Shown here in pieces: positions 15,266 to 64,000 of a stretch of 64,000 bases of DNA. Every line of letters starts with the position of its first letter. Position 1 is the stretch's first letter. A model generated the notes under the pieces. It worked only from the letters and a program-made list of their open reading frames with translations, was not told where the DNA came from and did no database searches. The stretch covers positions 6,866 through 70,865 of the forward strand of contig CAAGRW010000134.1 of NCBI GenBank assembly GCA_900772775.1, given 5' to 3'. This DNA comes from Candidatus Rifleibacteriota bacterium (GTDB lineage: Bacteria; Vulcanimicrobiota; Xenobia; Xenobiales; Xenobiaceae). Both the position numbers and the translations under genes were made by a program.

Positions 15266-16394
15266 TTAGACGACGTCGCTAGTTTGCGGCTCGCGGCCCA
15301 AGCGGGCTCGAGCTTGCAACCAACTGCGCATAAAGCCATTGATGTCGCCTTCCAGCACTGCGCCTACGTTGGCATTTTCAAAGCCGGTACGTCTATCTTT
15401 AACCATAGTGTAGGGTTGCATAACGTAGTTGCGGATTTGGTTGGCCCAGGCCGCCTCGCGATTTTCGCCCTTTACATTATCTAAAGTGTCTTGGCGTTGC
15501 TCGCGTTTAAGCTCTAAAAGTTTGGCTTTAAGCATGCGCATAGCCGTCTCTTTATTGGAATGTTGGGAGCGCTCGTTCTGGCAAGCGGCCACTGTGCCGG
15601 TAGGAATGTGAGTAATGCGTACCGCCGATTCGGTCTTGTTGACATGCTGCCCGCCTGCGCCTTGGGAGCGATAGGTATCTATTTTTAAATCTTCGGGGCG
15701 CAGCTCAATATTGAGCTCTTCAGCTAGCTCCGGCACTACTTCTACTTTAGCAAAAGAAGTGTGGCGGCGGTGAGCAGCGTCGTAAGGAGAAATGCGCACT
15801 AAACGGTGCACGCCGTGCTCGGAACTGAGCATGCCGAAGGGATAGAAGCCTTCTATAATGAGGCTGGCCGAATGGATGCCGTCTTCTTCGGCAGGCGAAT
15901 ACTCTACTAAACTTACTTTGTAGCCTTCACTTTCGGCCCAGCGCATATACATGCGCAAGAGCATTTCTGTCCAGTCTTGGGCGTCTACTCCGCCGGCTCC
16001 GGCATGAAGAGTAACAATAGCGGCCGCTTTATCGTAAGGGCCGTTCAGTAAAGAAATAGTTTCGGCTCGCTCTAAACGGTGAGTAAGCTCGTCATAATAG
16101 CGCTGGGCTTCGTCTATTTCTTCTTGATTGTCGGGCGTGCCCAACTCGGCGGCCACTTCGGCTTCTTCTAGCGCAGAATTGAGTTCGTGCCACTGTTGAG
16201 CTATCGTTTTGTATTGAGCCAGCTCTTGGGTGAGGCGTTGGACGGCCTCGTTATCTTCCCACACTTGGCCAGAGCCAAATTGGGCTTCTATTTCCTGAAT
16301 TTTGCGTTCGATTGTTTCCAGGTCAAAGATAGTCGCGCATGCGTTCGACGCGGGCGCGGGCTTCGCTTAAAGGCTCGGCAAATTGGGAGAGCAT
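15266..16394 (-). CDS. prfB: Peptide chain release factor 2, expressed through a programmed +1 frameshift
   Basis: ORF0 (minus strand, from the ATG at 16394) reads MLSQFAEPLSEARARVERMRDYL and then TGA, within the canonical CTT TGA C shift site (plus coordinates 16322..16328). The +1 frame continues DLETIERKIQEIEAQFGSGQVWEDNE... into the 332-aa ORF. That ORF contains the SPYDAAHRRHTSFA (SPF-type motif variant) and GGQHVN (GGQ) motifs. Confidence 0.9.
16322..16328 (-). other. RF2 autoregulatory +1 frameshift site (CUU UGA C)
   Basis: Plus-strand GTCAAAG is the reverse complement of CTTTGAC. It sits 23 codons after the ORF0 start. Confidence 0.85.
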
Positions 16395-49690: not shown

Positions 49691-52012
49691 ATGCGCACCG
49701 CTATTCGCAAAAAGCTCTTAATCGTAGTTTCCTTGGCTGCTTTGATTGTCTCTTGGCTGGCTTTGGATTTGGTAGATCGCAACTGTCGCTTGCACGTGAG
49801 CAAGCTATTTAATGAAGCGGGCAAAGATACAGCCCGCGCTTTAGCTACTAGCGATAAACGCGCCTATGATATGCGTTCGAGCATGATGCATACGGTGCTG
49901 ACTTCTTTGGAAACTGTCACTGAAGTAGTCAATTCTTTTCCCGGCATAGAAAAGAATCACGCTGCTTTGGACGGCTTGCGCAGCAGTTTAGGTATCAGTC
50001 GTATCGATATTATCGATGCGGCTCAATGGAAAATTATAGTTAGCTCCGATAAGCAATTAGATGGAGCCCCTGTACAAGTTGACAGGCCCGCCCCTTTGCA
50101 AGATAGCAATCCCGATTTTAGCGCTTTTGTCAGCAGTATGGGCAGTTACCATCCGGTCGATTATGTTACCGATAGACACAATCGCGACTTGTTGCTTTTC
50201 TATAGCGAACTTAAGCGCAAAGGGCGAGTCTTGCGTTTGGGCTTCAATGCCGTCAGTTTTAAAAATACCTACAATGTGGCCGAACACGAGTTGGTAACAG
50301 GCAGCTTGCCGCTGGGCGAGCATGGCGGCGTCGATGTCGTTTCCCAAAATGGTGTGATCGTCAATTGCGTAAATAAAGAATTTATCGGCACGCCCTTTGC
50401 CGAAGTCTACCCAGGGCTTGATTTCAGCCATTTCAAGGCCGGCCAATTGATAAAAGCCAACCGTCGCGGCACGGTGAGCTATTGCACTTTCTACACTACG
50501 CAATACGGCTACATTATGGTGCCCTTTATGCCTGCGGCGGAAGTTTATGCCACGCGAACGACCATTTTGGAAGTTATGCTTACCGGCTTTTTGATTATTT
50601 TGGCCGCTATCTTTTTTAGCACTTCCCGCATTGTCAAAAAGGTTATTCTGGATGGTTTAGAGCGTATCAATGCTTCCTTAGCCAAAATTGAAGCTGGCGA
50701 TTTGGAAGAAAAAGTAAACGAAACGAGTTATCCTGAGTTTTGTGTGCTAAGCCAAGGTATCAATTCCACAGTAGATGCTTTGAAGCAACTTATGGAAAGC
50801 CAGTCGGCCTACGACGCCGAGCAAATGAATTTGGCGCGCACTATTCAGCTCTCTTGTTTGCCCAAGTTTTTCCCCACTTATCCCGAGCTTAAACAGCTTG
50901 ATCTTTGTGCTCGTACTTCACCAGCTCAAGAAGTAGGCGGAGATTTTTACGATTATTTCCGCATTAAAGACAATTTGTATTGCGTCATTATTGCCGATGT
51001 TTCCGAACATGGCATTCCGGCCGCTCTAATGATGATGACAGCCAAAACTGCTTTGCATGATGCTATTTTATCTGGCGATACGCTCGAACACTGTATGGAG
51101 AGTGTCAACTTCTCACTGTGTGAAAATAACAGCACTTGCATGTTCGTGACCGCTTTTGCCGCTACCGTCAATACCGAAACTGGCGAATTTCGCTTTGTCA
51201 ATGCTGGCCACTGTCGCCCTCTGTTGCGCCGTCGCGACGGCATTTGGCATTCGGTAAAGATTGGCTCCGGCATGGTGCTTGGCGGTATGGACAATTTGAG
51301 CTATTCGGCCGAGAGTTGGTTCCTGGAAGAAGGCGATCGTGTTTTCTTATATACAGATGGCGTTACCGAAGCTATTAACGAAAAAGGCGAGATGTTCGGT
51401 TTGGGTGGCTTAGAGGTAGTATTAAATCGCCCTGCTTGCGACAATTACGATCCCGCTTCTCTAATAAATTTAGTGCACGACGAATTGGACAAGTTTGCTC
51501 AAAATTCCACTTTGGAAGATGATGTGACTATGGTGGCCTTGGAATATTATGGCCGCCGCCCTCGGGCTCGTTTCCTTCAGGTGCCGGCTTTAAGTGAAAA
51601 GTTGGACGATGTACTCAACTTTATAGACAATTTGTTGGACGAAACAGAACTTGATTTAGAAACTCTCAAACAAGTAAAAAGCTCTATGGCTACTGCAGTT
51701 GACGATATTTTTACCAATATCGTGAATTATGCCGGCCAGGGACGTCAGGAAACGGTCACTGTCACTGTGCGAGCCGAAATTCAAGCCTATCCTTACCAAT
51801 TGGTCGTGCACTTTATAGATAATGGCCATCCTTACGATCCTACGGCTGTTTCCGCTCCCAATGTAGATTTAGGTTTCCAAGAGCGTTGCTGCGGCGGTTT
51901 GGGCATATTCTTGGTGAAAAAGCTGACCGATCAAATGACTTATCGCTATACGGAAGGTTGCAACATCCTTCGTTTAGCTAAAAAATTAGAAAAAGCGGAA
52001 GAAAAAAACTAG
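49691..52012 (+). CDS. Membrane sensor: TM / extracytoplasmic domain / TM, then HAMP, a PP2C (SpoIIE/RsbU-type) phosphatase, and a C-terminal GHKL (RsbW/SpoIIAB-like) serine-kinase domain
   Basis: HAMP: LERINASLAKIEAGDLEEKVNETSYPEFCVLSQGINSTVDALKQL. PP2C: QEVGGDFYDYF...VIIADVSEHGIPAALMM...FLYTDGVTEA. HATPase_c: ...VRAEIQAYPYQLVVHFIDNGHPYDP...CCGGLGIFLVKKLTDQMTY... Confidence 0.75.
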   Translation: MRTAIRKKLLIVVSLAALIVSWLALDLVDRNCRLHVSKLFNEAGKDTARALATSDKRAYDMRSSMMHTVLTSLETVTEVVNSFPGIEKNHAALDGLRSSLGISRIDIIDAAQWKIIVSSDKQLDGAPVQVDRPAPLQDSNPDFSAFVSSMGSYHPVDYVTDRHNRDLLLFYSELKRKGRVLRLGFNAVSFKNTYNVAEHELVTGSLPLGEHGGVDVVSQNGVIVNCVNKEFIGTPFAEVYPGLDFSHFKAGQLIKANRRGTVSYCTFYTTQYGYIMVPFMPAAEVYATRTTILEVMLTGFLIILAAIFFSTSRIVKKVILDGLERINASLAKIEAGDLEEKVNETSYPEFCVLSQGINSTVDALKQLMESQSAYDAEQMNLARTIQLSCLPKFFPTYPELKQLDLCARTSPAQEVGGDFYDYFRIKDNLYCVIIADVSEHGIPAALMMMTAKTALHDAILSGDTLEHCMESVNFSLCENNSTCMFVTAFAATVNTETGEFRFVNAGHCRPLLRRRDGIWHSVKIGSGMVLGGMDNLSYSAESWFLEEGDRVFLYTDGVTEAINEKGEMFGLGGLEVVLNRPACDNYDPASLINLVHDELDKFAQNSTLEDDVTMVALEYYGRRPRARFLQVPALSEKLDDVLNFIDNLLDETELDLETLKQVKSSMATAVDDIFTNIVNYAGQGRQETVTVTVRAEIQAYPYQLVVHFIDNGHPYDPTAVSAPNVDLGFQERCCGGLGIFLVKKLTDQMTYRYTEGCNILRLAKKLEKAEEKN

Positions 52013-52030: not shown

Positions 52031-53323
52031 ATGGCTTCAGAAGATAATTATAACGAAAACAATGTCTCTCCCTTGACGGCGGCTTTGCTTACTTTGCTTA
52101 TTGGAGGCTTAGTCTGGTTGGGAGCTTCATTTTTTGATAATCTCACCAATTATGGCAGTCAGCCCCAGCCTGATCCTGTCAATTTGATGGCTTCGGGCAA
52201 TACTGAAGAAAATTTCTATAGTCCTGGACGGGCCAAGAGACGAGCCAATTTTTTCTTGCGCCGTCAAGGCGACGAAGCAGAAATGTCCTCTGCAGAAAAA
52301 GAACTTTTGGAAGAAGAAGATCGCACTAAAGAGCGCGATAAAGAAGATAGAGAAGAAGCTAGGCAAGGGCAAAATAGCAGCTCCGGTAATGACGACTTAG
52401 CTCAATCTCTCCAAGCTGTGCAATCTTCTGGAGCCGGTTGGGGAGAAGGTGGAGGGACTACTTCCGCTATTAGTCCTGTTTCTCCCGACGGTTTGAAACT
52501 TTCCGGCATTATGTTGGGTAGCGGCTCTGGCATTGCCGTTATCGAATATAACGGCACTTCCTACACAAAATCGGAAGGGCAAAAGATTGGCCGTTACACT
52601 GTGTCCAAAATTCTTTCTGACCGGGTAGTTGTAGAAGATGGAGTCAACAATTTTACTTTGGGGCTTAGCTCTTCCGGAAGTTCCGATTTAGCTTCTTCGG
52701 CAGGCGCAAGCCTTTCTTCAAACGGCCATCCTGTTTTGCCCGATCCCGGACAAGTGCCGCCACCTTCAGCACCGGTAGTAAAAGCCAAAACTGCTTTCAA
52801 AAATGAAGCTTCCTTAGCGCCTTCAGCTCTTTCAGAATACGAAGAAGAAAATGTTGAAACTGCCTCCGGAAATGCGTCTTCAGTGCCTGTGCCCAGCAAA
52901 ATTGATGTTTACGATTTAGCTCAAGAGCGCCGCGCCGAAGAAGAAAAAAAAGCTGACAGTTTGTATGCGCCTAAGGGAGCGGCCAAGGCTAAAGTAAAAT
53001 TGCCTAAAGCTAACCCTACGCCTGTGCGTCCTACTCGCGAAGAAATTGAAAAATATTTGCAGCGCGGCGCGGCCATCATTTCTGAAATTAAAGTGCAACC
53101 CGATGCCAGCGGTTTAGGCGTCAAAGTTAAGTTTGTACAAGAAGATAACGTATTGCACCGTTTAGGCATAAAAGATGGCGACGTTATCACCAGAGTAAAT
53201 AATAAAACTATTTTAAATAGCGAAGAATTGTTTAATTCAGTGCTCAATATTAGCGAAATGCCTTTCGTCAATATTGAATACAAACGCCAAGGCCAAACTG
53301 ATACTTTAATTTACGATTTATAA
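52031..53323 (+). CDS. gspC: GspC-like T2SS inner-membrane protein (TM, HR/PilP-like domain, C-terminal PDZ-like domain)
   Basis: TM LTAALLTLLIGGLVWLGASFF. HR-like LKLSGIMLGSGSGIAVIEYNGTSYTKSEGQKIGRYTVSKILSDRVVVEDG. C-terminal GVKVKFVQEDNVLHRLGIKDGDVITRVNNKTILNSEELFNSVL (PDZ-like). Confidence 0.55.
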   Translation: MASEDNYNENNVSPLTAALLTLLIGGLVWLGASFFDNLTNYGSQPQPDPVNLMASGNTEENFYSPGRAKRRANFFLRRQGDEAEMSSAEKELLEEEDRTKERDKEDREEARQGQNSSSGNDDLAQSLQAVQSSGAGWGEGGGTTSAISPVSPDGLKLSGIMLGSGSGIAVIEYNGTSYTKSEGQKIGRYTVSKILSDRVVVEDGVNNFTLGLSSSGSSDLASSAGASLSSNGHPVLPDPGQVPPPSAPVVKAKTAFKNEASLAPSALSEYEEENVETASGNASSVPVPSKIDVYDLAQERRAEEEKKADSLYAPKGAAKAKVKLPKANPTPVRPTREEIEKYLQRGAAIISEIKVQPDASGLGVKVKFVQEDNVLHRLGIKDGDVITRVNNKTILNSEELFNSVLNISEMPFVNIEYKRQGQTDTLIYDL

Positions 53324-53432
53324 AACGGGCCGCGTCGCTAGCAGCTTTGGGCCGCTACTCATTTAGGCTCACTCAAAATGGACGGGCTTTTTAGCAGGAG
53401 CCGCCCCTTGAAAGACAAATTACCTACGCCCT

Positions 53433-54722
53433 ATGGGTACGTTTTATAAGACAGCTCTCAGCCTGGCCGTTACAGCCGGCATTGGTTTCTCTCTCTGCGC
53501 TCCTTGTTTGGCCGAGCCTTGCGTTTCGGCTGAAGGACGTCTTGTAGCCGCTTCTTACGGCGTGAAAAAATACGATCGCGCTTCCAAAGCTAAAAAGGCG
53601 CCTAATTCAGCCAAGAAAAATATTGCACAAGATCAGTCGGTGCAAGCTTTAAACGAGATGCGTTTAGTCTCGCGTTGGTTTGCTGCTGCTTACGATATTC
53701 CGGCTCGCGTGCCCGAAGAAATGTTTTTAGCTGGCTATACCTATAGCGACGCTATTGTGGCTCTTTCGCTGATGGATGCGGGCGCTTCCTTAAATGAAGT
53801 ATTGGAGCAAAGGCGCAACCATCGCTGGGATGAAGTAGCCGCTTCAGTTGGTATCGAGCCTTCTTCTTTACCTAAGCCGGTCATCAAAGTAATGAATACT
53901 CAAAATGGCAATAGACCTTTAGAGTATGTCCATTTTACTCCCGATGTTCGCTCCGGCTTAGCTAGTCGTTTGCATTTGCCTTCTTTTTCTCCCACTGTGC
54001 CGGATCCCGTAGCTGTCGAACGTTTCCGTCTGTCTAAGAGCGATATTGCCAATATCAGAAAAGCCTTAGAAAATGTCAACGACTTAGATGAAGCCACTTT
54101 GCGCTTGCCTGCCGGTCGCTCTTTAAAAGTGGGCGATTGGGTCATTGCCGGCGTTCTCTCTAAATATAAGCCTTTCCCTATAGATACTATTCTCTCAGTT
54201 CGCACTGGCGAAGTAGTAGAGTGGGGCGATGTGGCCGCTATGTTTAGCGTCGATCCCAGCATTTTTGTAGAAGGCCCCTTGGCTCCCATTTATGGCGCTT
54301 TAGTCGAAGGTGAAAATTATGCTACTTTGTCGAGCTTGCGTCGCTCTTCTTATCCAGATGCCCTTAACAATATCTATGCCTTAAACAATGTAGAAGGCGC
54401 CGAGTTGCAAGCTTTGGGCTGGCTCATGAGTCTCTACTACAAAGAAACCGACGAAGAGAGGGCTTTACTCAATTCTTACGGCCTTTCTTTTGCCGATCAG
54501 GCTTTGTCTTTAGCTGTAGCTCGTATGGCTTTTGCCGATGTTAACGAAATCGCCAACCGTATTCGTCATGGAGCCAATTGGCAATATTTAATCGACTACT
54601 ATAAGTTAGACATGACCGGCCAAGATGTAGTGATGGCTGCTGCCGTAAGTCGCGACCAAGCTCGTTTCCCCGAAACTCCTTCGACAGATTCTAAGTCTGT
54701 GCGCAGTAAGCGCTTCAATTAG
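53433..54722 (+). CDS. Secreted hypothetical protein inside the T2SS-like cluster
   Basis: Signal peptide ALSLAVTAGIGFSLCAPCLAEP. 429 aa with no recognisable family. Confidence 0.5.
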   Translation: MGTFYKTALSLAVTAGIGFSLCAPCLAEPCVSAEGRLVAASYGVKKYDRASKAKKAPNSAKKNIAQDQSVQALNEMRLVSRWFAAAYDIPARVPEEMFLAGYTYSDAIVALSLMDAGASLNEVLEQRRNHRWDEVAASVGIEPSSLPKPVIKVMNTQNGNRPLEYVHFTPDVRSGLASRLHLPSFSPTVPDPVAVERFRLSKSDIANIRKALENVNDLDEATLRLPAGRSLKVGDWVIAGVLSKYKPFPIDTILSVRTGEVVEWGDVAAMFSVDPSIFVEGPLAPIYGALVEGENYATLSSLRRSSYPDALNNIYALNNVEGAELQALGWLMSLYYKETDEERALLNSYGLSFADQALSLAVARMAFADVNEIANRIRHGANWQYLIDYYKLDMTGQDVVMAAAVSRDQARFPETPSTDSKSVRSKRFN

Positions 54723-54730
54723 GAAAGACC

Positions 54731-55144
54731 TTGAACAGGCTGCTAACTAGAAAAAATAGTGAAAGGGGAGGCAAGCTGGGCTTTTCGCTTTTGGAAGTGC
54801 TCATTTCGTTAGGCTTGGTCTCTATGGTCTTCGGCAGCTTAATTGGGGGCTTTTGCCAGCATGTGCAGCGTGTCGCTCGCCTGGGCCCCTTCTATCGCAA
54901 TCTGATCGTGGCTTCCGTAGGTTTGGAAAAAAGCATGGCCAAGAGAAATGACGGCGAGACCGATTCTATAGATGATATTGAATATAAAGTCACCGTCGGA
55001 GCCATGCCTTCCGATCCGCGTATCGACCAGATAGAAAGCAAAGTTAGCAGCAATCGTCCGGGACATAGCGCTGTAGTTAAGGCTTATCGCTTGCGTCAGG
55101 TCAGTTCTGCTTCATCTTCTTCGGGCACTTCTTCCGGCACCTAG
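54731..55144 (+). CDS. Minor pseudopilin (GspI/GspH-like) with a type IV prepilin leader
   Basis: ...GGKLG|FSLLEVLISLGLVSMVFG: Gly-Phe cleavage site, Glu+5, hydrophobic helix. TTG start with AGGAAAG RBS. Confidence 0.65.
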   Translation: MNRLLTRKNSERGGKLGFSLLEVLISLGLVSMVFGSLIGGFCQHVQRVARLGPFYRNLIVASVGLEKSMAKRNDGETDSIDDIEYKVTVGAMPSDPRIDQIESKVSSNRPGHSAVVKAYRLRQVSSASSSSGTSSGT

Positions 55145-55162
55145 TCAGAAATTTTTTTATTC

Positions 55163-55966
55163 ATGTTTAAAGCCAGCTTCAGTGCAAAAAATACAGCCTT
55201 GCTTTTAAGACGACATTCCGGCGGCTTCACTTTGCTTGAACTTATGCTGGTTATGGGGCTGGCCACTTTAGTTTATTCACTGATTTCCTACATGACCATT
55301 CAGATGAATAATACGGTGCGCCATTCGCAAGTAGCTTTCAAACGCCAAGAATTGATTATCGAAACGGCTGAGCGTTTGCGCTGGCAATTGCGTTGTCTTT
55401 ATGATCGCGTACCGGAAAGCTCTTCTTCTGAAGCTCCTGCCAGCCATACCAATCCTCCCACTTTGCTTAAATCGGCTCTCTATGGCAAAAGCCTAGGTGA
55501 AAAAGGGAAAGATGTACTCCTTTTCAAGACTACCTATTTCCCTTTGCGAGTTAAAAACAGCGGTACTGCTGAAGTGGGCTACAAAATTATGAGCGATTCT
55601 TCCGGAAGCTTCTCTCTTACCGAGCCGGTAAAAACAGATGACGATAAGTTGCGCTCTCTGGAAGCTGCCGATTTTATTAGCTCTAATCAAAACGCTGAAA
55701 GTAAAAACTACTTGGCTTACCGGCAGTACCCTTGGGCCGATCCTTTGGGCTTACACGATGTTGGCGACGATAGTCAGGTGCCTTGGGAAAAGTTAAGCTC
55801 AGAAATTATCGGTATGGAAATACGCTTTTCCGATGATTTAGAAATTTGGCAGCAAGATTGGACAGGCGAAGGGGTGCCCAAGTGGGTGGAAGTTACTTTT
55901 GAACTTAAACGCGGCGAGCCTTTAGTCTTCATTACCGGCCCTGTAGTAGCGGCCGATCGCTGGTAG
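55163..55966 (+). CDS. Minor pseudopilin (GspJ-like)
   Basis: ...RRHSGG|FTLLELMLVMGLATLVYSLISY prepilin signal. The start is either the ATG at 55163 or the in-frame TTG at 55199. Confidence 0.6.
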   Translation: MFKASFSAKNTALLLRRHSGGFTLLELMLVMGLATLVYSLISYMTIQMNNTVRHSQVAFKRQELIIETAERLRWQLRCLYDRVPESSSSEAPASHTNPPTLLKSALYGKSLGEKGKDVLLFKTTYFPLRVKNSGTAEVGYKIMSDSSGSFSLTEPVKTDDDKLRSLEAADFISSNQNAESKNYLAYRQYPWADPLGLHDVGDDSQVPWEKLSSEIIGMEIRFSDDLEIWQQDWTGEGVPKWVEVTFELKRGEPLVFITGPVVAADRW

Positions 55967-55978
55967 GGGGCAACGATT

Positions 55979-57118
55979 ATGGTTTTAATGGCAGTTTTGG
56001 GAGCTATTTTGGTCGCTTTAGTTATTGCTGCCAAAATGAGCGAAGTGGGCGTCGACGCCCAAAACCTAATAAACTACACTTCAGCTAGAGAAAACAATTA
56101 CCAGATCGCTCGTTCGGCTGCCGAAATGGGCTTCGAGCTTCTTAAAGCCGACAATGGCGATACCGACAGCTTAAACGATATGTGGGCTGCTGGTTCCGTC
56201 ACTATGGAGTGGGAAGGCAAAAACGTTATCATCAGTATCATTGACGAAGAGAGCAAGTTTCCTCTCAGCGCTATGCAAAAAGCTCCTGATAATTGCGAAT
56301 ATTTGGAAAAAGGCTTGGTGCGTCTTTTTGAAAATGGCGGTTTGGGCTGCGGCGAAGAAGCCAAAGATCGCTTTCTCGATTGGGTAGATCCCGATTCTCA
56401 AAGGCGCAACCAAGGCGGCGAAGTTAGCGATTATGATGAACTGACTATAAAAGATGCTCCGGTCGATTCTTTGCAAGAAATTTTGAATTTGCCCGGTTGG
56501 GATAAAGGCCCCTCGTATGCTTCGGCCCGAGCTCAAAACAGTTTGCAAAGCGTTATGGGATCTGTTTCCGCTGGTAGTTCAGCTACTTTAAGCCAGGCGG
56601 CCGCCCAATCTTCAACCGAGAGCCAAAATACGGCTGCAAGCAATACCTCTGCCAACAACGGCCAATTTAGCAAGTTCGGATCTGACAATTCAAGCCAAAC
56701 TACTGCCAATTCAGAAGATGAAGGCTACAAATTAGATGTACCTTCAGCCCAAACTCAAGGCGGCACTGCCACTACTCCCTGGGAAGAATGGGTCAGCGTC
56801 GATTCTAATGGCAAAATCAATATCAATACCGCTCCCAAAGAAGTGCTTCTGGCTTTGGATGAAAGTATGAGCCAAGTGTTGGTAGATGAAATCGACTCTA
56901 AGCGCCGCTCTGAAGCTTTCAAAAAAGTAGACGATTTGCACAACGTTACCGGCATGGACGCCGATTTGCTTTTCCGTATCCAGGATTATTTGTGCGTTAA
57001 AAGTTCTACTTTTAGTATCGATGTAACGGTTCTGTCCACTCCCGGACGCATAAAGTTGCACAGTGTAGTCAGCCGTGAAAGCGGCGCTATAAAAATTTTG
57101 CGCTGGGAAATACGCTAA
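55979..57118 (+). CDS. gspK: GspK-like pseudopilin
   Basis: Non-canonical N-terminal hydrophobic segment AVLGAILVALVIAAKMSE and a C-terminal helix-hairpin-helix KININTAPKEVLLAL characteristic of GspK. TAGGGGG RBS. Confidence 0.6.
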   Translation: MVLMAVLGAILVALVIAAKMSEVGVDAQNLINYTSARENNYQIARSAAEMGFELLKADNGDTDSLNDMWAAGSVTMEWEGKNVIISIIDEESKFPLSAMQKAPDNCEYLEKGLVRLFENGGLGCGEEAKDRFLDWVDPDSQRRNQGGEVSDYDELTIKDAPVDSLQEILNLPGWDKGPSYASARAQNSLQSVMGSVSAGSSATLSQAAAQSSTESQNTAASNTSANNGQFSKFGSDNSSQTTANSEDEGYKLDVPSAQTQGGTATTPWEEWVSVDSNGKININTAPKEVLLALDESMSQVLVDEIDSKRRSEAFKKVDDLHNVTGMDADLLFRIQDYLCVKSSTFSIDVTVLSTPGRIKLHSVVSRESGAIKILRWEIR

Positions 57119-57416
57119 AAATTTCTTGGCGCTGGATCTTTTTGCCATTAGGCAAAAAATAGGGCAGGAAGGGAAACAATCGGGGAGAACCAAGGCCATG
57201 TAGAATAAAGTCTGCACGCCATATTGTTTAACTTTCTTTATATAACCAACTTCAGGTTCTCTTCACGGAAGTACATTTTTTTTACTATGTGGAGGAACTT
57301 GTTATCTTACATGGAAAAACCGCTGGAAATAAGGCTGATGTTCTCGCAAAGCATCTCCTTGAAGTAAACCCTACAAACTTTCAAAGGTTTTTCTCGAAAG
57401 GGATTTGTTACTAAAC

Positions 57417-58922
57417 ATGACTAACAAGAACACGTTTCGTTTTGCTACTTTCGCTGCAGTAGCCAGCTTAGGTTTAGGCTTGATGATCTCCGGCTGCGGT
57501 GATGGCGGCTCCACTACTCCTAACCCCTTAAACGCCAAATTCGGCCAAGTCACTTTCAACTACAACGTATTGGCTCAGACCACTGCTAGAGCCGATATCG
57601 CTGAAAATATCGCCACTGTAAAATACGTTTTCTTCGGTGTAGAAAATGGCGCTCGCTTCATGGAAGAGCCCGTTGCTTACAATTTCACTCACGGTGAAAA
57701 AGATGCCGAGACCGATGTTACCGTTAAGAACGTCAATCTCGATGCTTCCGGCGTAATCGCTGCCTACTACGACAAAGATGGCAACCTCGTTGCTATGGGC
57801 GAAGATGTTATCGAATTCGATGCCGAAGGTAAAGAAGTTGTCGAGACTCCCGAAGTAACCGACTTCGCTAACGCTACCTACAGCATGACCGCTAGCCAGT
57901 ACGTTATCGCTCCTAAGGACGAAACCGTTATCGGTCTTACCGCCGTTGCCGGTGACAAGACTTACAACGTAACTCCTTTCGTAACCATCAGTGGTATCGA
58001 CGAAGCTATCTTGGCTTATGTCCAGGATACCAACCAAGGCGCTACCTACCAGGGCGCTGAGTACGGCACCATCGCCGCCAACACCATTAAGGCTACTGTA
58101 AACGGCACCGAGTATGCTATCGACAAGCCCATCTACGTAACCGACCAGACCCCCAACGCCATCAAGATTGTGGCCGACCAGGTTGACGGTAAAGACGTAA
58201 CCACCGTTGCCGCTACCGAAGAAGCCAACGAAGCCCTCACCGTAGTATTGGCCGGTGAAAAGAGCATTCTCGCTAACGAGAAAGCCGTAGAGCTCACTGC
58301 TGAAGGCAAAGACGCTCTCTACTATGCCGTAAACGAGCAGCCTATCGCCGTTATCGCTACCGGTTACACCAACGTAGAGGGTAAAGGCCCGCAGCCCGAA
58401 GGTATTGAGAGCGAAATCGAAGACCTCAGCAAGATCACCCTCGTTTCCGGCACCGAAGCTACCGCTAAGGCCGAAGGTTTGAACCTCATCGCCGCTGCCG
58501 AAGGTAACACCGTCGTCACCGCTACTTACAAAGTAGACGACGAAACCACCGTCGAGAGCACCAACAAGTTGGACGTCAAAGTTGTCGGCGCTGACGAGAA
58601 CCTCGCTTTCTCCAACACTGAGACCAAAGCTTTCATGACTGATGTCAAAGTAGACGCTGAAAAAGACCAGACCTTCACCATGGCTGTTGCCGGTAAAGCT
58701 ACTTTAGACGTAGACGCTACTTCTTACGTCAGCGCTCCTATCGAGTACACCGCTGAGGAGTATCCCGCCATCGTAGCCGTTACCGAAGAAGGTATCACTT
58801 ACGCTCAGACCGAGGGTAAGAACGAGTACACTCTCACCGTGGCCAAGACCGCTGCTCCTGAAGAAGCTGTCGAAATCACCGTTGATGCTACTTCCTTCGA
58901 CTCTATCGAAGTTACCAAGTAG
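57417..58922 (+). CDS. Surface lipoprotein, paralog 1 of a four-member tandem family
   Basis: Lipobox LMISGC, then conserved FNYNVLA, TVKYVFFG and AAYYDKDGNLVAMG motifs shared with the downstream paralogs. ATG at 57417; an in-frame TTG at 57405 is also possible. Confidence 0.7.
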   Translation: MTNKNTFRFATFAAVASLGLGLMISGCGDGGSTTPNPLNAKFGQVTFNYNVLAQTTARADIAENIATVKYVFFGVENGARFMEEPVAYNFTHGEKDAETDVTVKNVNLDASGVIAAYYDKDGNLVAMGEDVIEFDAEGKEVVETPEVTDFANATYSMTASQYVIAPKDETVIGLTAVAGDKTYNVTPFVTISGIDEAILAYVQDTNQGATYQGAEYGTIAANTIKATVNGTEYAIDKPIYVTDQTPNAIKIVADQVDGKDVTTVAATEEANEALTVVLAGEKSILANEKAVELTAEGKDALYYAVNEQPIAVIATGYTNVEGKGPQPEGIESEIEDLSKITLVSGTEATAKAEGLNLIAAAEGNTVVTATYKVDDETTVESTNKLDVKVVGADENLAFSNTETKAFMTDVKVDAEKDQTFTMAVAGKATLDVDATSYVSAPIEYTAEEYPAIVAVTEEGITYAQTEGKNEYTLTVAKTAAPEEAVEITVDATSFDSIEVTK

Positions 58923-58983
58923 TAATTTCTACTTACACTTCATCTAGGTTGAGTTTGTAGCTTAGCCTAGTTTGAACTGAGAA

Positions 58984-59022
58984 TAGCCTCCGGCTTCTAC
59001 TGAAGCTGGAGGCTATTTTTTT
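58984..59022 (+). terminator. Rho-independent terminator
   Basis: 14-bp stem TAGCCTCCGGCTTC/GAAGCTGGAGGCTA followed by TTTTTTT. Confidence 0.7.
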
Positions 59023-59168
59023 GCTTTATTGTGTGAAGTTTTTTTTATAAAAAAGTAAAAAATGCCGAAAAAAGGACGTTTCTCTTTTGCTGGTGAAAAA
59101 AGCTAGGAGCGTCCGCTGTGAAGCGGTTCTGGCTATTTTTTCTAACGAAAGGTTTTGTCTTTTTACAT

Positions 59169-60842
59169 ATGCTTAACAAAAACACGTTTTGTTTTACTGC
59201 TTTTGCAGCGGTCGCTAGCTTAGGTTTAGGCTTATTCGTTTCCGGTTGCGGCGACAGCGGCTCTACTAGCCCCAACCCTTTAACGCCGACAACTAAAACT
59301 TATAAGGCCGTTTTTAATTACAATGTGTTGGCTGCTTCAACCGCTAAGGCTACTGATATAAAATCCGAAATCGTTACTGTCAAATATGCTTTTTATGGCC
59401 AAATTGACGGCCAAAACTTTATAAACGGCCCCGAAACCGATCCTTCTTATATTCAAACTTTTACTCACGGCGCAGAAGCTGTAGAAAAAGAATTTACAGT
59501 CAATAATGTCGATCCGCAAGCTACTTCAGTAGTGGCAGCTTACTATGACGCTGAAGGCAACTTAGTGGCTGTTGGTCAAAACGATATTTCTTTTAACGAA
59601 GATAAGGTTGCTATCGTAGCTGAACCTGAATTAGACGAAGTCGCTGACGATAGCATAACTTTTACCGCTAGCAAATACGTTATACCTTTGCAAGATACTG
59701 TGCTAATGTCTCTTAAAGCTATAGCTGCCAATAAATAATACGATTTGAGCGCTTTTGCCGAAATTAGCGGTATAGACGAGGCGGTGCTCGAAAAGCAAGA
59801 GGGCAGCTTAGAGGGCCTTACTTACAAGGGCATAAAATATGGCACTATTGAAGGTGGTACTATTACTGCTACTATTGGCAACACTAAGACCGTTATCGCC
59901 GATCCTATTTATGTTACCGACCAAACCCCCTCTGCTATTAGGGTAAAGCCTGCTTCAGTTGAGGGCCATGATATTTTTGCCGATAGTGATTACAATGGCC
60001 AAAAGTATTATATGCAATACGTTGACGAGAAGTGTTTACTTAGCCATTACCCGTACATAAAGTACCACGCCAATTCTTCCAAGAAACAATACGATCCAAT
60101 CTACTATTACATTAACGATCAACCTTTTATCGTTTATGCCACCGCTTACACTTCCGAAGATCCTACCAAAGGGCCTACTCCCACTATTAAAGATGGACAA
60201 ATTGGTATCAATATTACCGACGATCCTAACGTTAAGCTTTTAGATGTAGAATTTTCCGATCCCGAGTATATGAAAGCGCTTGGTTTCAAAATTCAGGCTA
60301 GTATAGTCGATAAAACTAAAGTGCATGCTAGTGGCGTAAACTCTTATAACTATGGTGACGATTACCAAATAACTGCCCAATATGGACAAGGCGACCAAGC
60401 TATAAAGAGCGATCCTATAAGGTTAATCGTCGAAGCTGAAGGCGTGAATAATGAAGTTATTCAGTTTGCGGCTATAGAGGAAGGCCAAGAACCTACTTTC
60501 TTTGTTCCTTATACTATCGAGGCTAAGAAAACTAAGATCGACTTTAAGATGAAACTTATGGGCATTTCTAGTGTGCTTATTAGCTTTGATGGAGGAGAAT
60601 CGGTGCCTTTTTATACCGATCCTTTGGAAATTCCCACCGATGTAATTGCACCTGATCAGTATCCTGATGTTGTCAAGCAAACTGAGTTCTCCAACTTGAT
60701 TTATAAACAAGATGAACCTGGACTTAATGCCTACACCTTAAAAGCTGAAGGTGAGCTGGAAGCTAATAAAATAGTTAAGCTTTACGTTGAAGATGTGGAA
60801 AGCGCTCCGCAATACTCTTTCATATCTATTACCACTTATTAG
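59169..60842 (+). pseudogene. Lipoprotein paralog 2, interrupted by an in-frame TAA at 59736..59738 (the ORF track splits it into 59118..59738 and 59745..60842, same frame)
   Basis: ...LKAIAANK * YDLSAFAEISGIDEAVL... aligns residue for residue with paralog 1 ...TAVAGDKTYNVTPFVTISGIDEAIL... across the stop. The 5' UTR and signal peptide are also homologous to paralog 1. Confidence 0.6.
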
Positions 60843-60867
60843 AGTGATAGTTCGCTAAATTAACTAT

Positions 60868-60907
60868 AAGCGGTTGTACTTCTTGTAAGTACAGCCGCTT
60901 TTTTTAT
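60868..60907 (+). terminator. Rho-independent terminator
   Basis: AAGCGGTTGTACTT/AAGTACAGCCGCTT stem followed by TTTTTTTATT. Confidence 0.65.
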
Positions 60908-61117
60908 TGGAAGGCTTGGCAGGAGGGAGGGCGCCTTGTTTGAAAATGTATCGGTTATTATTTATAAATTGCCCCGGGGTGGCTTTTTTTTGCCAAGTCG
61001 GCGGCGCTTGTCTCTTGTAAGCTATTTTTCTGGCTGAAAGGCTGAGAAACGGTTCACGAATTTTTCGCGTCAAAAGCGCGGTTCAACTCTTTCTATCTCT
61101 GAGAGGAACAAATAAAT

Positions 61118-62731
61118 ATGGCTAAGTCCGCCTATAAGAATCTATACGGCTTTACTGCTTTTGCGGCTGCCGCCGGTTTGGCTTTGTGCTTAACTGCTTC
61201 CGGTTGCAGTGATGATACTTCCGATCCCAATCCTTTTGCGGCCAACCTCGGTACTGTCACCTATAACTATACTAAAGCCGTAGCTAAAGCTGCCGAGCTT
61301 CCTTCTACTGCTGTTAAAGCTACTTACACTTTTAGTGCCGGCGACGCTTTAGTCTATACTACCAGCGCTCCTATCGATACTATTACTGACGAAGAAGCCG
61401 CTGCTGGCGAATCGGTTGTCCGTACAGTTACTATCGAACAAGTACCTGCTAGTGCTGACAAAGTTTCCGTTATGTACTTTAATAGCGAGGGCACTCCCGT
61501 TGGTTTGGGCGTAGATAGCCTCGACTGGACTTCCACTACTACAGGTAAAGCCGCTGTTGTAGATCAGCCCGATGTCATAGACAGCACAACTATCGCTGCT
61601 CAAATTGTGGCCAAGCAAATTGTTCCCCAATTAGTAGCTTCCGCTCCTTGCGTAGACAAGGGCAACTACGTTTGGGTAAAGCCTGTTATGGCTTACACTA
61701 ATAGTTTAGGTCAGTCCGTCACCTTTGATCTTAGCGGTTTTGCTACCTATTCTTTGAATAAAAAATATGCCGATCAGCCCACTTATTTAGAAGAAGCCAA
61801 ATATGCCTATTATATGGGCAACAAGGCCGATTCTTTAGTAGCTGACGAAGACACTACCGAAGATGATACTACTGGCGAAGACACTGAAGCTACTGCTAAA
61901 GTAAGCGCTGCCGAAGCTACTCCCGGCTATTATAAAGCTGTTGAATATGGCCAGCAGGAAGTTAGCGTATCTCTGACCGGTTTGGAAGCTTTGGGCGAAT
62001 TGGCTCCTCTTACTGTCTATATTAGCGACGCCAAACTTGCTGGTGTAACTATCGATGGTGAAGATGATGTTTACGTTATCGCTCCCGATTACGATTTCGG
62101 TCAGGAATCTGTGACTGTCTCCGGCGTAAGCACTGCTGCTATTCCTTTTAATACTGCATCTTTCCAAGCTGTCGGCGAATATGTTGGCACCAACGGCCCT
62201 AGCTTCACTACCGATGCCAGCCAGTATGTCAACTGGAATATTGAACAGAGCGAAGGCGTTACCGCTACTCAAGACGCTTTGGGTCACTATGTAGTTACTT
62301 CCAAAGCTACTTCTTTGAAAGATATTGCTATAACCGCTCAGTCTAAAGGTACTTCCGACAAAGTCACTTTGCACTCTCTGCCCGCTAAAGCCGATATTAA
62401 AGTCAATATCGATAAAGAAATGACCTTGGATACCGTAGAAAATGGTACCGTTGAAGGTTTCTTCAAAGTTACGACTGCTGAAGGAGAAGTAGAAACTTCC
62501 AGCTTCAATGTTCCCAACTATGGTAAAGTCAAGATCAAAAATGTCGAGTCTGATAGAGCCGAGAGCAAACCTGAAGTAGCTAAAAATGAAAATGCTAACG
62601 GCATTTACATTAGTCTTGACAAAGAAGAGCCCGGAAACGAGGTTTCTTTCGACGTTATTTACAAAGATGGTAAGAAAATCAACAAGACAGTTTCCACTAC
62701 CGTAACTGTTGTTGACGTCGAAGATGTATAG
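61118..62731 (+). CDS. Surface lipoprotein, paralog 3
   Basis: GAGAGGA RBS. Lipobox LTASGC, with VTYNYTKAVA, ATYTFSAG and VMYFNSEGTPVGLG motifs homologous to paralogs 1 and 2. Confidence 0.7.
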   Translation: MAKSAYKNLYGFTAFAAAAGLALCLTASGCSDDTSDPNPFAANLGTVTYNYTKAVAKAAELPSTAVKATYTFSAGDALVYTTSAPIDTITDEEAAAGESVVRTVTIEQVPASADKVSVMYFNSEGTPVGLGVDSLDWTSTTTGKAAVVDQPDVIDSTTIAAQIVAKQIVPQLVASAPCVDKGNYVWVKPVMAYTNSLGQSVTFDLSGFATYSLNKKYADQPTYLEEAKYAYYMGNKADSLVADEDTTEDDTTGEDTEATAKVSAAEATPGYYKAVEYGQQEVSVSLTGLEALGELAPLTVYISDAKLAGVTIDGEDDVYVIAPDYDFGQESVTVSGVSTAAIPFNTASFQAVGEYVGTNGPSFTTDASQYVNWNIEQSEGVTATQDALGHYVVTSKATSLKDIAITAQSKGTSDKVTLHSLPAKADIKVNIDKEMTLDTVENGTVEGFFKVTTAEGEVETSSFNVPNYGKVKIKNVESDRAESKPEVAKNENANGIYISLDKEEPGNEVSFDVIYKDGKKINKTVSTTVTVVDVEDV

Positions 62732-62895
62732 TTTCTTGTAATTCTTACGATATAAAAGGTGGCTGTCTCAGCTCTAACAATCTGGGGCTGCCCCTTTTTT
62801 TTAGGCTAACATTATTTTGTTAAAGGCGGAAAAATATCTGCTTTAGCAAAATTTGAGGGGCTTTGATACTACATTTTCACCAGAAAGGAATATCT

Positions 62896-64000
62896 ATGCG
62901 CAAGTTTTTTCTTAACAAACGCTCTTGGAAAGTTTTAGTAGCTTTTCTTATGGTGTTGGGCTTTTGCACTGTCTTAAGCGCTTGCTCCGACGATGATGAG
63001 CTGGCTAATCCTTCTCGCGCTTCTATTTTGGTAACTCACGAAATTTCTTCCGGTAAAGTAGCGGCTTCGGCTCGTGCTTTAGGTTCCGATATTCACAGTG
63101 TGATTTACTATTGCTACAACAGCCAGGGCGTGCGTACTTTTGGACCGGCTCAGTTGGTAAAAGCTCACCAAGTGCTTTTGCAAGCTGTTCCGGTAGAATC
63201 TACCTCTATTGGTATGACCTACTACAATAGTGATGGTAAAGCTTTGGCTTACTACAGCCAGCCTGTCAGCTTAAAAGTAGGCCAAGTCTACGAAGTGACC
63301 AATCCCGAGTGGAAATACCTTGACGAAATCGACAATATGGTCGGCTTAGAAATTGCTCAAGACGAGATGCGTTTGCATACTGGCGACGAGGCTATTTTCT
63401 ACGCTTTGGCTTTATTTAAAGATGCTGAAAGTGGCAAAATCTATCCTCAGCTTTTCACCGGTATGTGTGATTGGAAGAGCAGCAATACTAAAGTTGCTTC
63501 TTTAACTAAACAAACCGATGACGGCGAGAGCACTTTAGGCAATGGTAAGTTCTATACTTTGGCTGCTGGCAGCGCCGACATTAGCGCTTCTTTCCAGAAA
63601 TATACTGATACCGTAACTTTAAATGTTACTGACGCTGATATTACTGAAGTTAAATTTGCGGAAACTGACATTACTTTGCCTTTAGGTTTGCCTTCTTACG
63701 AGTGTCCTTTGATGGCTACTTGGTCTGATGGCGAAACTACCGACGTAAGTTATCAGAGCAACTGGAGCTCTAGCAATATTGATCGCGTTTTGGCTAGCTA
63801 TGGCGCTATCTTCCCTAAAGCTTGCCACGAAGAAGAGGAACAGCCTACTACTATTACCGCTACTTGCACTTCCAATGGCAATAGTTATCAGGCTCAGTGC
63901 AAAGTAACTGTAGTTGAAGGCACTTTCAAAGGTTTAAGCGTCTCTCTCGACCCGGAAACTCTCTATGTTGGTGGATCTAGCTTCATTGATGTCTTTGCTA
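62896..64000 (+). CDS. Surface lipoprotein, paralog 4 (partial, runs off the window end)
   Basis: AAAGGAA RBS. Lipobox VLSACSDDD with YYCYNSQG and MTYYNSDGKALAYY motifs. No stop before 64000. Confidence 0.65.
   Translation, partial: MRKFFLNKRSWKVLVAFLMVLGFCTVLSACSDDDELANPSRASILVTHEISSGKVAASARALGSDIHSVIYYCYNSQGVRTFGPAQLVKAHQVLLQAVPVESTSIGMTYYNSDGKALAYYSQPVSLKVGQVYEVTNPEWKYLDEIDNMVGLEIAQDEMRLHTGDEAIFYALALFKDAESGKIYPQLFTGMCDWKSSNTKVASLTKQTDDGESTLGNGKFYTLAAGSADISASFQKYTDTVTLNVTDADITEVKFAETDITLPLGLPSYECPLMATWSDGETTDVSYQSNWSSSNIDRVLASYGAIFPKACHEEEEQPTTITATCTSNGNSYQAQCKVTVVEGTFKGLSVSLDPETLYVGGSSFIDVFA

Follow-up and report, generated by a model that had tools for sequence, protein, structure and literature searches.

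A variable array of putative lipid-anchored surface proteins with predicted Ig-like domains in gut Xenobia

The window, by which the whole stretch of 64 kb of analysed DNA is meant, ends in four consecutive genes of the forward strand, here called p1 to p4, with starts at positions 57417, 59169, 61118 and 62896. Upstream, on the same strand, lies a group of context genes (52031-57118) with no shown functional link to p1-p4: a gspC-like PDZ gene (52031-53323), a 429-aa gene of no assigned function (53433-54722), a gspI-like gene (54731-55144), a gspJ/H-like gene (55163-55966) and gspK (55979-57118), which ends in TAA. The array was described in the first-pass annotation as lying directly downstream of pseudopilin genes, and gspK is indeed followed by p1. 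The first gene is preceded by a conserved leader or promoter region of about 130 nt (57287-57416) ending in the Shine-Dalgarno sequence GAAAGGG, and encodes a 501-aa lipoprotein (57417-58922) with the lipobox cysteine at residue 27, a tether reaching to about residue 40 and five predicted beta-sandwich domains. A TTG at 57405 was considered as its start and rejected; the ATG at 57417 is backed by orthologs and by database gene calls. The second gene, p2 (59169-60842), is a paralogue of p1 with 557 codons and an internal stop. A conserved region with long blocks invariant across seven genomes (60903-61117) precedes p3 (61118-62731), a remote family member encoding a 537-aa lipoprotein with the mature N-terminus CSDDTSDPNPF and an acidic low-complexity insert at residues ~240-270. 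The last gene, p4 (62896-64000), has the mature N-terminus CSDDDELANPS and runs past the window end, so that 368 of its approximately 492 codons are included, the length being taken from an ortholog of 492 aa. It had been claimed that each gene has its own terminator, and this holds for p1 (58979-59020, a 19-pair stem and a T-run), p2 (60868-60900, a 14-pair stem and a T-run) and p3 (62769-62800, a hairpin and a T-run), all of them strong, while the end of p4 lies beyond the window.

The signal peptides of all four products combine an n-region rich in K/R with a hydrophobic core and a lipobox (consensus [LVI][ASTVI][GAS]C), the last read from the sequence as LMISG/C in p1, LFVSG/C in p2, LTASG/C in p3 and VLSA/C in p4. 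A lipobox filter applied to the ATG-started open reading frames of the window, at a length of 120 aa or more, passed these four and no others. The earlier description of four co-directional neighbours with lipoprotein signal peptides is thus borne out by gene coordinates and lipobox reading, and lipidation of the four products may be assumed.

All-against-all alignment of the four proteins revealed that their homology is real though graded. Identity between p1 and p2 is 36% over the full length (E 1.7e-87), p3 is remote (28% identity with p1 over 253 aa, E 7e-7), and p4 matches p2 and p3 with E ~2e-4, confined to the N-terminal 140-160 aa. Profile-profile comparison (hhalign) of p4 orthologs with the p1-p3 family gave a probability of 94% (E 1.3e-7; 233 columns), and the common ground of p4 with p1-p3 appears to be only the N-terminal two domains (about 230 residues). 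The blocks FNYNVLA, TVKY.F.G and AAYYD..GNLVA.G, which the first-pass annotation attributed to all four genes, are exact in p1 and p2 only and occur in p3 and p4 as degenerate versions (VMYFNSEGTPVGLG; MTYYNSDGKALAYY); all conserved blocks sit within the first folded domain. Lipoprotein paralogues that share a conserved N-terminal module and diverge in their bodies were therefore correctly recognised, but they are not four equivalent diversifying paralogues: p4 is conserved, the p3-type occurs once per array and p2 is inactivated here.

A recent duplication of p1 and p2 together with their promoter had also been proposed on the basis of a shared 5' untranslated region. That shared sequence reduces to a T-run and a ribosome-binding site, and upstream of the two genes the similarity is no greater than expected by chance, being equalled or exceeded in 34 of 500 shuffles. 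Nucleotide similarity starts 5 nt before the ATG and spans the signal peptide and the tether, forming a direct repeat of 120 nt with 78% identity between its copies at the 5' ends of p1 (57412-57531) and p2 (59164-59283), the 62-nt core of which is also found inside p3 (61151-61212). Distinct p1 and p2 orthologs are present in genomes whose flanking genes are just 78-92% identical, and for this reason the duplication is judged from the sequences to be ancient, not recent.

The in-frame TAA of p2 (59736-59738, forward strand), missed at the first reading, is GAG in a 91%-identical relative (L001). The truncated product, of 206 aa, was recovered in independent NCBI/ENA/Logan and JGI assemblies; most close p2 alleles are full length, with 557-584 aa. 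Stop-codon recoding was rejected, as TAA also ends gspK, relatives have a sense codon and the window contains prfB (PCRF and RF-1 domains, frameshift site). This copy of p2 may be either a pseudogene or a truncated lipoprotein of 189 aa carrying the first domain and the start of the second.

In the AlphaFold model of p1 a disordered tether is followed by five beta-sandwich domains, D1 (~41-150), D2 (~151-243), D3 (~244-335), D4 (~336-405) and D5 (~406-501), in agreement with the Ig-like or beta-sandwich structure that had been anticipated. The domains resemble the Big_2 domains of LigA and S-layer proteins; however, the matches are to generic beta-sandwiches with low whole-chain TM-scores (0.1-0.3), and such a predicted fold leaves ligand and function unspecified. 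D1 is modelled as a transthyretin-like sandwich, equally matched by fibronectin III, CBMs and glycosidase domains. Searches of Pfam, NCBIfam and PDB sequences gave nothing usable for p1-p4: p1-p3 have no Big_2 (PF02368) match at the Pfam gathering threshold and the p4 of the window gave just aBig_2 at 14.2 bits (cutoff 27). Two p4 orthologs have precomputed PF02368 matches, and p4 orthologs carry an acidic GDNTGD tail.

The segment ANPSRASILVTH of p4 was considered as a sulfatase formylglycine motif (C/S-x-P-x-R-A-S-I-L-T-G) and rejected, the target position being Ala or Gly in most orthologs. The same segment aligns with the family-wide 'NP' tether and the first beta-strand. A radical SAM/SPASM gene adjoins p4 in relatives, in convergent orientation, and in L006 it has its own upstream open reading frame of 30 aa; a link between this gene and p4 was rejected on account of the orientation, the separate upstream frame and the Ala/Gly at the motif target.

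The transthyretin-like D1 allows a reading in which p1-p4 face the periplasm and dock an outer-membrane machine in the manner of pilotins or TssJ, with the Ig-like domains spanning the periplasm. We hold this to be highly improbable, since the match identity is just 5-8% on a generic fold, pilotins are single-domain proteins of ~110-140 aa and p1-type proteins have about 500 aa in five domains, so that none of p1-p4 is a small single-domain transthyretin-like protein. Moreover, machine parts are not expected in 3-10+ copies, freely pseudogenised or body-swapped between near-identical strains. D1 alone also matches the subunits of type V pili (FimA/Mfa), a system in which lipoprotein precursors encoded as tandem paralogues undergo cleavage and then polymerise through strand exchange. 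That p1-p4 are such subunits is scarcely credible: five domains are predicted rather than the two of type V pilins, with their N-terminal cleavage site and C-terminal donor strand, no Pfam family is significantly matched by p1-p4, the genes are monocistronic with individual terminators, and the phylum is unrelated to Bacteroidota. The resemblance to S-layer proteins could in turn mean that an S-layer-like lattice, anchored by lipid, is built from p1 as its protomer, with the paralogues as alternative or accessory subunits. This is very unlikely, because the likeness extends only to generic strings of Ig-like domains (TM-scores 0.2-0.3), the genome already encodes an abundant-looking SLH protein of the OmpM/SlpA type, and p1-p4 have no SLH or other lattice-anchoring module; neither a wall-anchoring module (SLH, CWB2 or similar) nor a self-assembling lattice was recognised.

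The family comprises 74 clusters among 1.84 billion representative proteins, and all genome matches are gut metagenome-assembled genomes of UBP9/Xenobia; it would thus represent a previously undescribed, lineage-specific lipoprotein family. Comparison of relatives, which had been recommended for copy number and sequence, demonstrated that both vary among close relatives, as is usual for variable surface coats or adhesins. Arrays of 3, 4, 5, ~6 and 8 genes were found; the same genomes contain additional arrays at other places, and there are fragmented family copies in L015 and L018. Every array examined ends in a single p4 gene, whose identity among relatives is 64-95% (dN/dS 0.075), and there is one p3-type gene per array. 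The genes p1-p3 evolve faster than their neighbours: dN/dS is 0.13-0.21 versus 0.02-0.10, and identity between orthologs amounts to 56-57% for p1-p3 as against 78-92% for the flanking genes. Gene-wide positive selection was not seen in any of the four genes, dN/dS being below 1 throughout (0.075-0.21). The reading of these genes as surface antigens or adhesins stands, because neither of the two findings named beforehand as speaking against it was obtained: identities are above random for the family and the copy number among relatives is not a conserved single one.

The variation is most pronounced in p1, where it was observed between strains, not within a clone. Between genomes L011 and L012 identity is 98-100% as far as the start codon of p1, falls to ~38-50% in the p1 body and recovers within p2, and the p1 body of L011 does not exceed 40% identity with any other family member compared, paralogues of the same genome included. 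When 35 alleles of p1 are compared, the segment of signal peptide and tether is nearly invariant (entropy 0.03), whereas 45-58% of sites are variable in each folded domain. A search for a device of phase variation or gene conversion revealed no invertible repeats, none flanking promoters and no arrays of simple sequence repeats. No silent cassettes were found, all copies having their own Shine-Dalgarno sequence and signal peptide and, in the window, p1-p3 their terminators; no tandem coding repeats and no long near-identical tracts between the window paralogues were found either. The T8 tract that precedes p1 does not vary in length among the five closest genomes.

The p1 leader is 75-87% identical in nucleotides in genomes where the p1 coding sequence is just 57-73% identical, and the region upstream of p3 is 70-80% identical versus 64-78% for its coding sequence. 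The p1 leader has no Rfam match, its predicted fold is no more stable than that of shuffles (z -0.15) and only 2 compensatory pairs were found in seven sequences, so the evidence leans against a structured cis-regulatory RNA. The C3 value of p1 is 0.46, close to the 0.48 of the OmpM/SlpA-like SLH protein, while all other family members have 0.19-0.30; in every canonical array C3 is highest in the first gene, and dS of p1 is 0.17 versus 0.23-0.54 in neighbouring genes. High expression of p1 is suggested by this strong bias towards C-ending codons, an indirect proxy of expression.

[quoted passage not shown] In the window, as in at least eight related genomes, gspK is followed immediately by the canonical array. 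The signal peptide and the tether, being nearly invariant, could serve as a recognition element, and InvL, a 492-aa lipoprotein with three Ig-like domains and a lectin domain, needs the T2SS for its surface exposure (PMC9245377). Nevertheless, p1-p3 have separate terminators, a conserved region of its own precedes each of p1 and p3, and no gspD, gspE, gspF or gspG was found among the scanned open reading frames of the window. In the more distant L006/L019 the orthologous array is preceded by DUF3300 and peptidase genes instead of gsp genes and keeps the downstream neighbours radical SAM/SPASM and AI-2E, and there are no gsp neighbours at L007, L014, L016, L018, L020, L021 and L022. A conserved gsp association, a supportive rather than defining trait of T2SS-dependent lipoproteins such as PulA, InvL and SslE, is therefore not found across the family, and it is generally known that adjacency of cargo genes to T2SS genes is not the rule. 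The earlier suggestion that the lipoproteins are substrates or partners of the pseudopilin module is weakened by the terminators and by the unconserved adjacency, and such a role is considered unlikely; it would be compatible with a surface coat, because the T2SS would supply the export route.

The interpretation preferred here, to which a probability of about 0.6 is given, is that p1-p4 are lineage-specific lipid-anchored, probably surface-exposed proteins of gut Xenobia, acting as a variable surface coat or as adhesins. Export would proceed by Sec, with lipidation at the cysteine of the lipobox, and a flexible Pro/Thr/Asp-rich tether of ~13 residues (CGD[SG]GSTTPNPL, or CSDD... in p3 and p4) would hold to the membrane a rod of Ig-like beta-sandwich domains projecting outward. 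The envelope of the bacterium is very probably diderm, to judge from the OmpM-like SLH protein, MlaD and the T2SS genes in the window and from the outer membrane with LPS seen in the sole cultured member of the phylum (PMC9758169); consequently the proteins would have to be flipped across the outer membrane to its outer face. An array would consist of 1 to 6 p1/p2-type genes, one p3-type and one conserved p4-type gene, each transcribed alone, the first gene being the main expressed member and the hotspot of variation with replacement of whole-body alleles. The family would evolve by birth and death, that is by duplication, loss, nonsense mutation and fragmentation, and p2 of the window would be a recent casualty of this process. 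Host immunity or phages may be the selective driver. A more far-reaching proposal is that the first array position is a dedicated high-expression site, marked by the conserved leader, the invariant signal peptide and tether and the codon bias, at which the ectodomain is exchanged by homologous recombination with the invariant 5' ends of the first and the next gene as crossover handles, possibly with T2SS export through recognition of the tether. It is decidedly unlikely in this full form; if true, an uncultured gut phylum would possess population-level antigenic variation of a dominant surface lipoprotein.

Xenobia (UBP9), so far uncultured, belong to the gut communities of primates and humans and occur, for example, in samples of Hadza hunter-gatherers. 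The family described here is a candidate for the dominant and most variable component of their cell surface, and in such a role it would probably be where the cell meets host IgA, mucus and phages. The family could be used as a strain-typing marker or as an antigen for enrichment or cell sorting, and it offers a test case for the surface delivery of lipoproteins in a Terrabacteria diderm with an OmpM-type envelope.

Several known systems share some of these features. In the variable lipoprotein families of Mycoplasma (Vlp/Vsa) and Borrelia (Vsp/Vlp), which are tandem or dispersed, a conserved 5' region and signal peptide are joined to divergent mature parts, and copy number differs between strains. 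The family of p1-p4 is likewise multigene, with a conserved 5' end and signal peptide and divergent mature regions, but promoter homopolymer variation, invertible elements, silent cassettes and tandem coding repeats, by which switching could be recognised, were not found, and the predicted fold of p1 is Ig-like, as opposed to repeat or helical. The S-layer proteins SbsB, SbsC, EA1 and Sap of Firmicutes are anchored by SLH/SCWP, in contrast to the lipid anchor predicted for p1-p4.

With the surface lipoproteins of Bacteroidota p1-p4 share the gut niche and the beta-sandwich lipoprotein type; nevertheless the closest genomes are Xenobia of the phylum Vulcanimicrobiota/Eremiobacterota, outside Bacteroidota, and there is no Sus-like or TonB-dependent transporter partner near p1-p4. 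The machinery for the lipoprotein export signal (LES) is, to our knowledge, described from Bacteroidota alone. In Bacteroides this signal is SDDDD, and the motif is defined as one polar and then two or more acidic residues at positions +2 to +5 of the mature protein (PMC5080379). The mature N-termini of p3 (SDDTS) and p4 (SDDDE) resemble the signal and fit this definition, taken from Bacteroidota; those of p1 (GDGGS) and p2 (GDSGS), whose CGD[GS]GS has a single Asp at +3, do not.

The leptospiral LigA/LigB and the intimin/invasin-type adhesins differ from p1-p4 in that Big_2 is undetected in p1-p3 and weak in p4 orthologs; p1 has five domains versus 12-13 in the Lig proteins, its D1 is distinct and transthyretin-like, and the phylum is another one. 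InvL of Acinetobacter baumannii, which functions in adhesion (PMC9245377), is similar as a lipoprotein of ~500 aa built of consecutive Ig-like domains in a diderm with T2SS genes. It differs in that p1-p4 have no detectable sequence similarity to it and no recognised C-terminal lectin-like cap, and in that InvL is single-copy, whereas the p1-p4 family forms a variable multigene array in which linkage to gsp genes is not conserved. As a variable family of lipoproteins with multiple predicted Ig-like domains, p1-p4 would bring no new mechanism and would extend a known pattern to a new phylum.

Four genes, p1 to p4, lie in succession on the plus strand between 57.4 and 64.0 kb and belong to a real, lineage-specific and previously undescribed family of multi-Ig-domain lipoproteins. 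p1 (57417-58922, +) encodes 501 aa, p2 (59169-60842, +) comprises 557 codons, p3 (61118-62731, +) encodes 537 aa, and p4 begins at 62896 (+) and runs past the window end, its ortholog on a 91%-identical contig being 492 aa long. p1 truly starts at ATG 57417, preceded by the Shine-Dalgarno sequence GAAAGGG, and not at TTG 57405. Each of the four proteins starts with a basic n-region, which leads through a hydrophobic core to a lipobox (ISG-C, VSG-C, ASG-C and LSA-C in p1 to p4 respectively). A simple lipobox filter, run on the 64-kb window's ATG-started ORFs with a length of 120 aa or more, retained these four genes alone. Strong intrinsic terminators are located 3' of p1, p2 and p3, and each of the four genes is monocistronic.

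The paralogy proposed earlier exceeds chance in both pairwise alignments and profile-profile comparison, but it is graded. p1 and p2 are 36% identical over the full length (E 1.7e-87), p1 and p3 28% across 253 aa (E 7e-7), while p4 reaches only E of about 2e-4 with p2 and p3, in the N-terminal 140-160 residues. In hhalign, a p4 profile of eight orthologs matched the p1-p3 family profile (37 sequences) with a probability of 94% and E 1.3e-7 over 233 columns, spanning the signal peptide, the tether (the disordered Pro/Thr/Asp-rich stretch after the lipobox Cys) and the first two folded domains. The conserved blocks quoted for the whole array all fall within the first domain and are exact in p1 and p2 only, being degenerate in p3 and p4. 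The 5' UTR said to be shared by p1 and p2 comes down to a T-run and a Shine-Dalgarno sequence, and the alignment of the two upstream regions does not stand out from that of shuffled sequence (34/500 shuffles score as well); the nucleotide repeat that does exist begins 5 nt upstream of the ATG and takes in both signal peptide and tether (120 nt, 78% identity). Nor was the duplication recent: it is old, because p1 and p2 already have distinct orthologs in genomes that share just 78-92% identity in the flanking genes.

Beta-sandwich domains, anticipated for the family, were indeed predicted for p1. Its AlphaFold2 model (37-sequence alignment) is confident and all-beta (pLDDT 86.8, pTM 0.74), with residues 1-39 (signal peptide and tether) disordered and followed by five such domains; Big_2-CBM56, intimin, invasin and FdeC are listed alongside this model, the fold matches being generic, with low whole-chain TM-scores (0.1-0.3). 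Searches of p1-p4 against Pfam, NCBIfam and PDB sequences gave no match, and two p4 orthologs carry Big_2 matches. Only 74 clusters emerged when 1.84 billion representative proteins were searched with a profile, so the family is tiny and lineage-restricted. The closest named proteins belong to 'Candidatus Bruticola' MAGs (class Xenobia, phylum Vulcanimicrobiota/Eremiobacterota), and all genome-collection matches are UBP9/Xenobia gut MAGs (Hadza humans, UBA4705, Bruticola).

Between the window and the related locus L001, dN/dS amounts to 0.21 for p1, 0.20 for p2, 0.13 for p3 and 0.075 for p4, against 0.02-0.10 for six upstream genes; constraint is thus relaxed, yet selection is purifying overall. 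Against another related locus (L004), p1 and p3 orthologs are 56-57% identical, p4 75% and flanking genes 78-92%. The clearest case is that of two further loci, L011 (6000-8200) and L012 (6000-8300). They match at 98-100% over gspK and the p1 leader, as far as the p1 start codon; just past the signal peptide, identity drops to about 50% nt and 38-39% aa in the p1 body, stays at about 50% nt through the p1-p2 spacer, and recovers inside p2, reaching 100% by about 500 nt into that gene. In an otherwise near-identical background the p1 allele has been replaced, and p1 is a hotspot of such replacement, bounded by conserved 5' gene ends. A set of 35 p1 alleles is almost invariant over signal peptide and tether, with 10% of sites variable there, in comparison to 45-58% in each folded domain. 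About 130 nt upstream of p1 (57287-57416) and about 215 nt upstream of p3 (60903-61117) are conserved across species at least as well as coding regions; they may be promoters and mRNA-stabilising leaders, with no Rfam match and unconvincing covariation.

The canonical locus opens with n p1/p2-type genes, continues with one p3-type and one p4-type gene, and is followed by a radical SAM/SPASM gene in convergent orientation and by an AI-2E transporter. Comparison with related genomes bore out variation in copy number: n is 1 in L006/L019, 2 in the window, L001, L008 and L011, 3 in L004/L010, 3 plus a fragment in L015, and 6 in L005. Further arrays or singletons occur in unrelated contexts of the same genomes (L014 and L016 with four genes each; L007, L018, L020, L021, L022), and copies are fragmented in L015 and L018. 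The pattern is one of birth-and-death evolution. In L005 (7350-10000, a Ca. Bruticola MAG) an insertion of about 2.6 kb, containing a GNAT acetyltransferase and small ORFs, splits the array and separates its first member from six others. The radical SAM/SPASM gene is convergent to p4 in every canonical array (L006 15408-16603, -; L001 17015-18121, -), lying just past the window end in the present case, and the AI-2E family transporter comes next or close by. An overlapping 30-aa ORF precedes the radical SAM/SPASM gene in L006, and the two look like a RiPP precursor/maturase pair.

The nonsense allele of p2 in the window is one case of this birth-and-death evolution. An in-frame TAA at 59736-59738, overlooked by the first-pass annotation, replaces the GAG of L001. 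The stop is genuine and not an assembly artefact, because the truncated product recurs in independent assemblies: NCBI/ENA/Logan contigs carry the exact 206-aa product, and a JGI contig carries a second variant of 206 aa. TAA serves as a normal stop codon here, since it also ends gspK and since prfB (RF2; 15266-16394, -) is encoded in the window with a classical programmed +1 frameshift site (CTT TGA C, 16322-16328, -) 22 codons past its ATG. Full-length p2 alleles (557-584 aa, at least 90% identical) are found in dozens of contigs, the majority of close alleles being intact.

Three observations lead us to infer that the main expressed member is p1: its C-ending codon bias (C3 0.46, against 0.19-0.30 in p2-p4 and all other family members), the top C3 rank of the first gene in every canonical array, and the lowest dS in the region (0.17, window vs L001). 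The first gene of the array is probably highly expressed. The p1 value is near that of an 820-aa SLH protein gene (11572-14034, -), whose codon bias exceeds that of any other window gene (C3 0.48, Nc 36) and whose N-terminal SLH domain matches OmpM (Veillonella) and SlpA (Deinococcus). It is probably an abundant outer membrane-peptidoglycan tether, and indicates an OmpM-type diderm envelope in gut Xenobia. Given this protein, the MlaD and T2SS-type genes also encoded in the window, and the outer membrane with LPS of the sole cultured member of the phylum (PMC9758169), a diderm envelope is very likely.

Upstream, a partial T2SS-like cluster (52031-57118, +) comprises a gspC-like (PDZ) gene, a gene for a secreted 429-aa protein without family match, gspI-like and gspJ/H-like genes and gspK; gspD/E/F/G/L/M were absent among window ORFs scanned against Pfam. 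Ahead of it lie a SpoIIE phosphatase fused with a HATPase_c_2 anti-sigma kinase (49691-52012) and, as seen in relatives, a STAS gene, which suggests partner-switching regulation. The array directly follows gspK in the window clade and Bruticola genomes, and this position had been taken as a pointer to a link with the pseudopilins. The position does not support it: in L006/L019 the orthologous array keeps its downstream neighbours next to upstream genes unrelated to gsp, all secondary loci are without gsp genes, and the genes are monocistronic. A T2SS export route is nevertheless possible for p1-p4 by analogy, because T2SS-dependent surface lipoproteins are well documented, e.g. InvL, a 492-aa Ig-domain lipoprotein (PMC9245377). 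The mature N-termini of p3 (SDDTS) and p4 (SDDDE) may hint at surface targeting in another way, as they resemble the lipoprotein export signal SDDDD of Bacteroidota (PMC5080379), a precedent from another phylum. The mature p4 N-terminus, 'CSDDDELANPSRASILVTH' (62990-63030, residues 30-48), mimics this Bacteroides signal and also the tail of the formylglycine motif of sulfatases (PSRASIL.T); the likeness to sulfatases was put down to coincidence, as most orthologs have Ala or Gly at the target position.

With a conserved leader, signal peptide and tether, an ectodomain that changes fast, fluctuating copy number, pseudogenes, and allele replacement at its first gene, the family bears the hallmarks of a variable cell-surface component, for which we infer surface exposure, abundance, a ligand and an export route. 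It shows no new mechanism and represents a well-known kind, the variable surface lipoprotein system.
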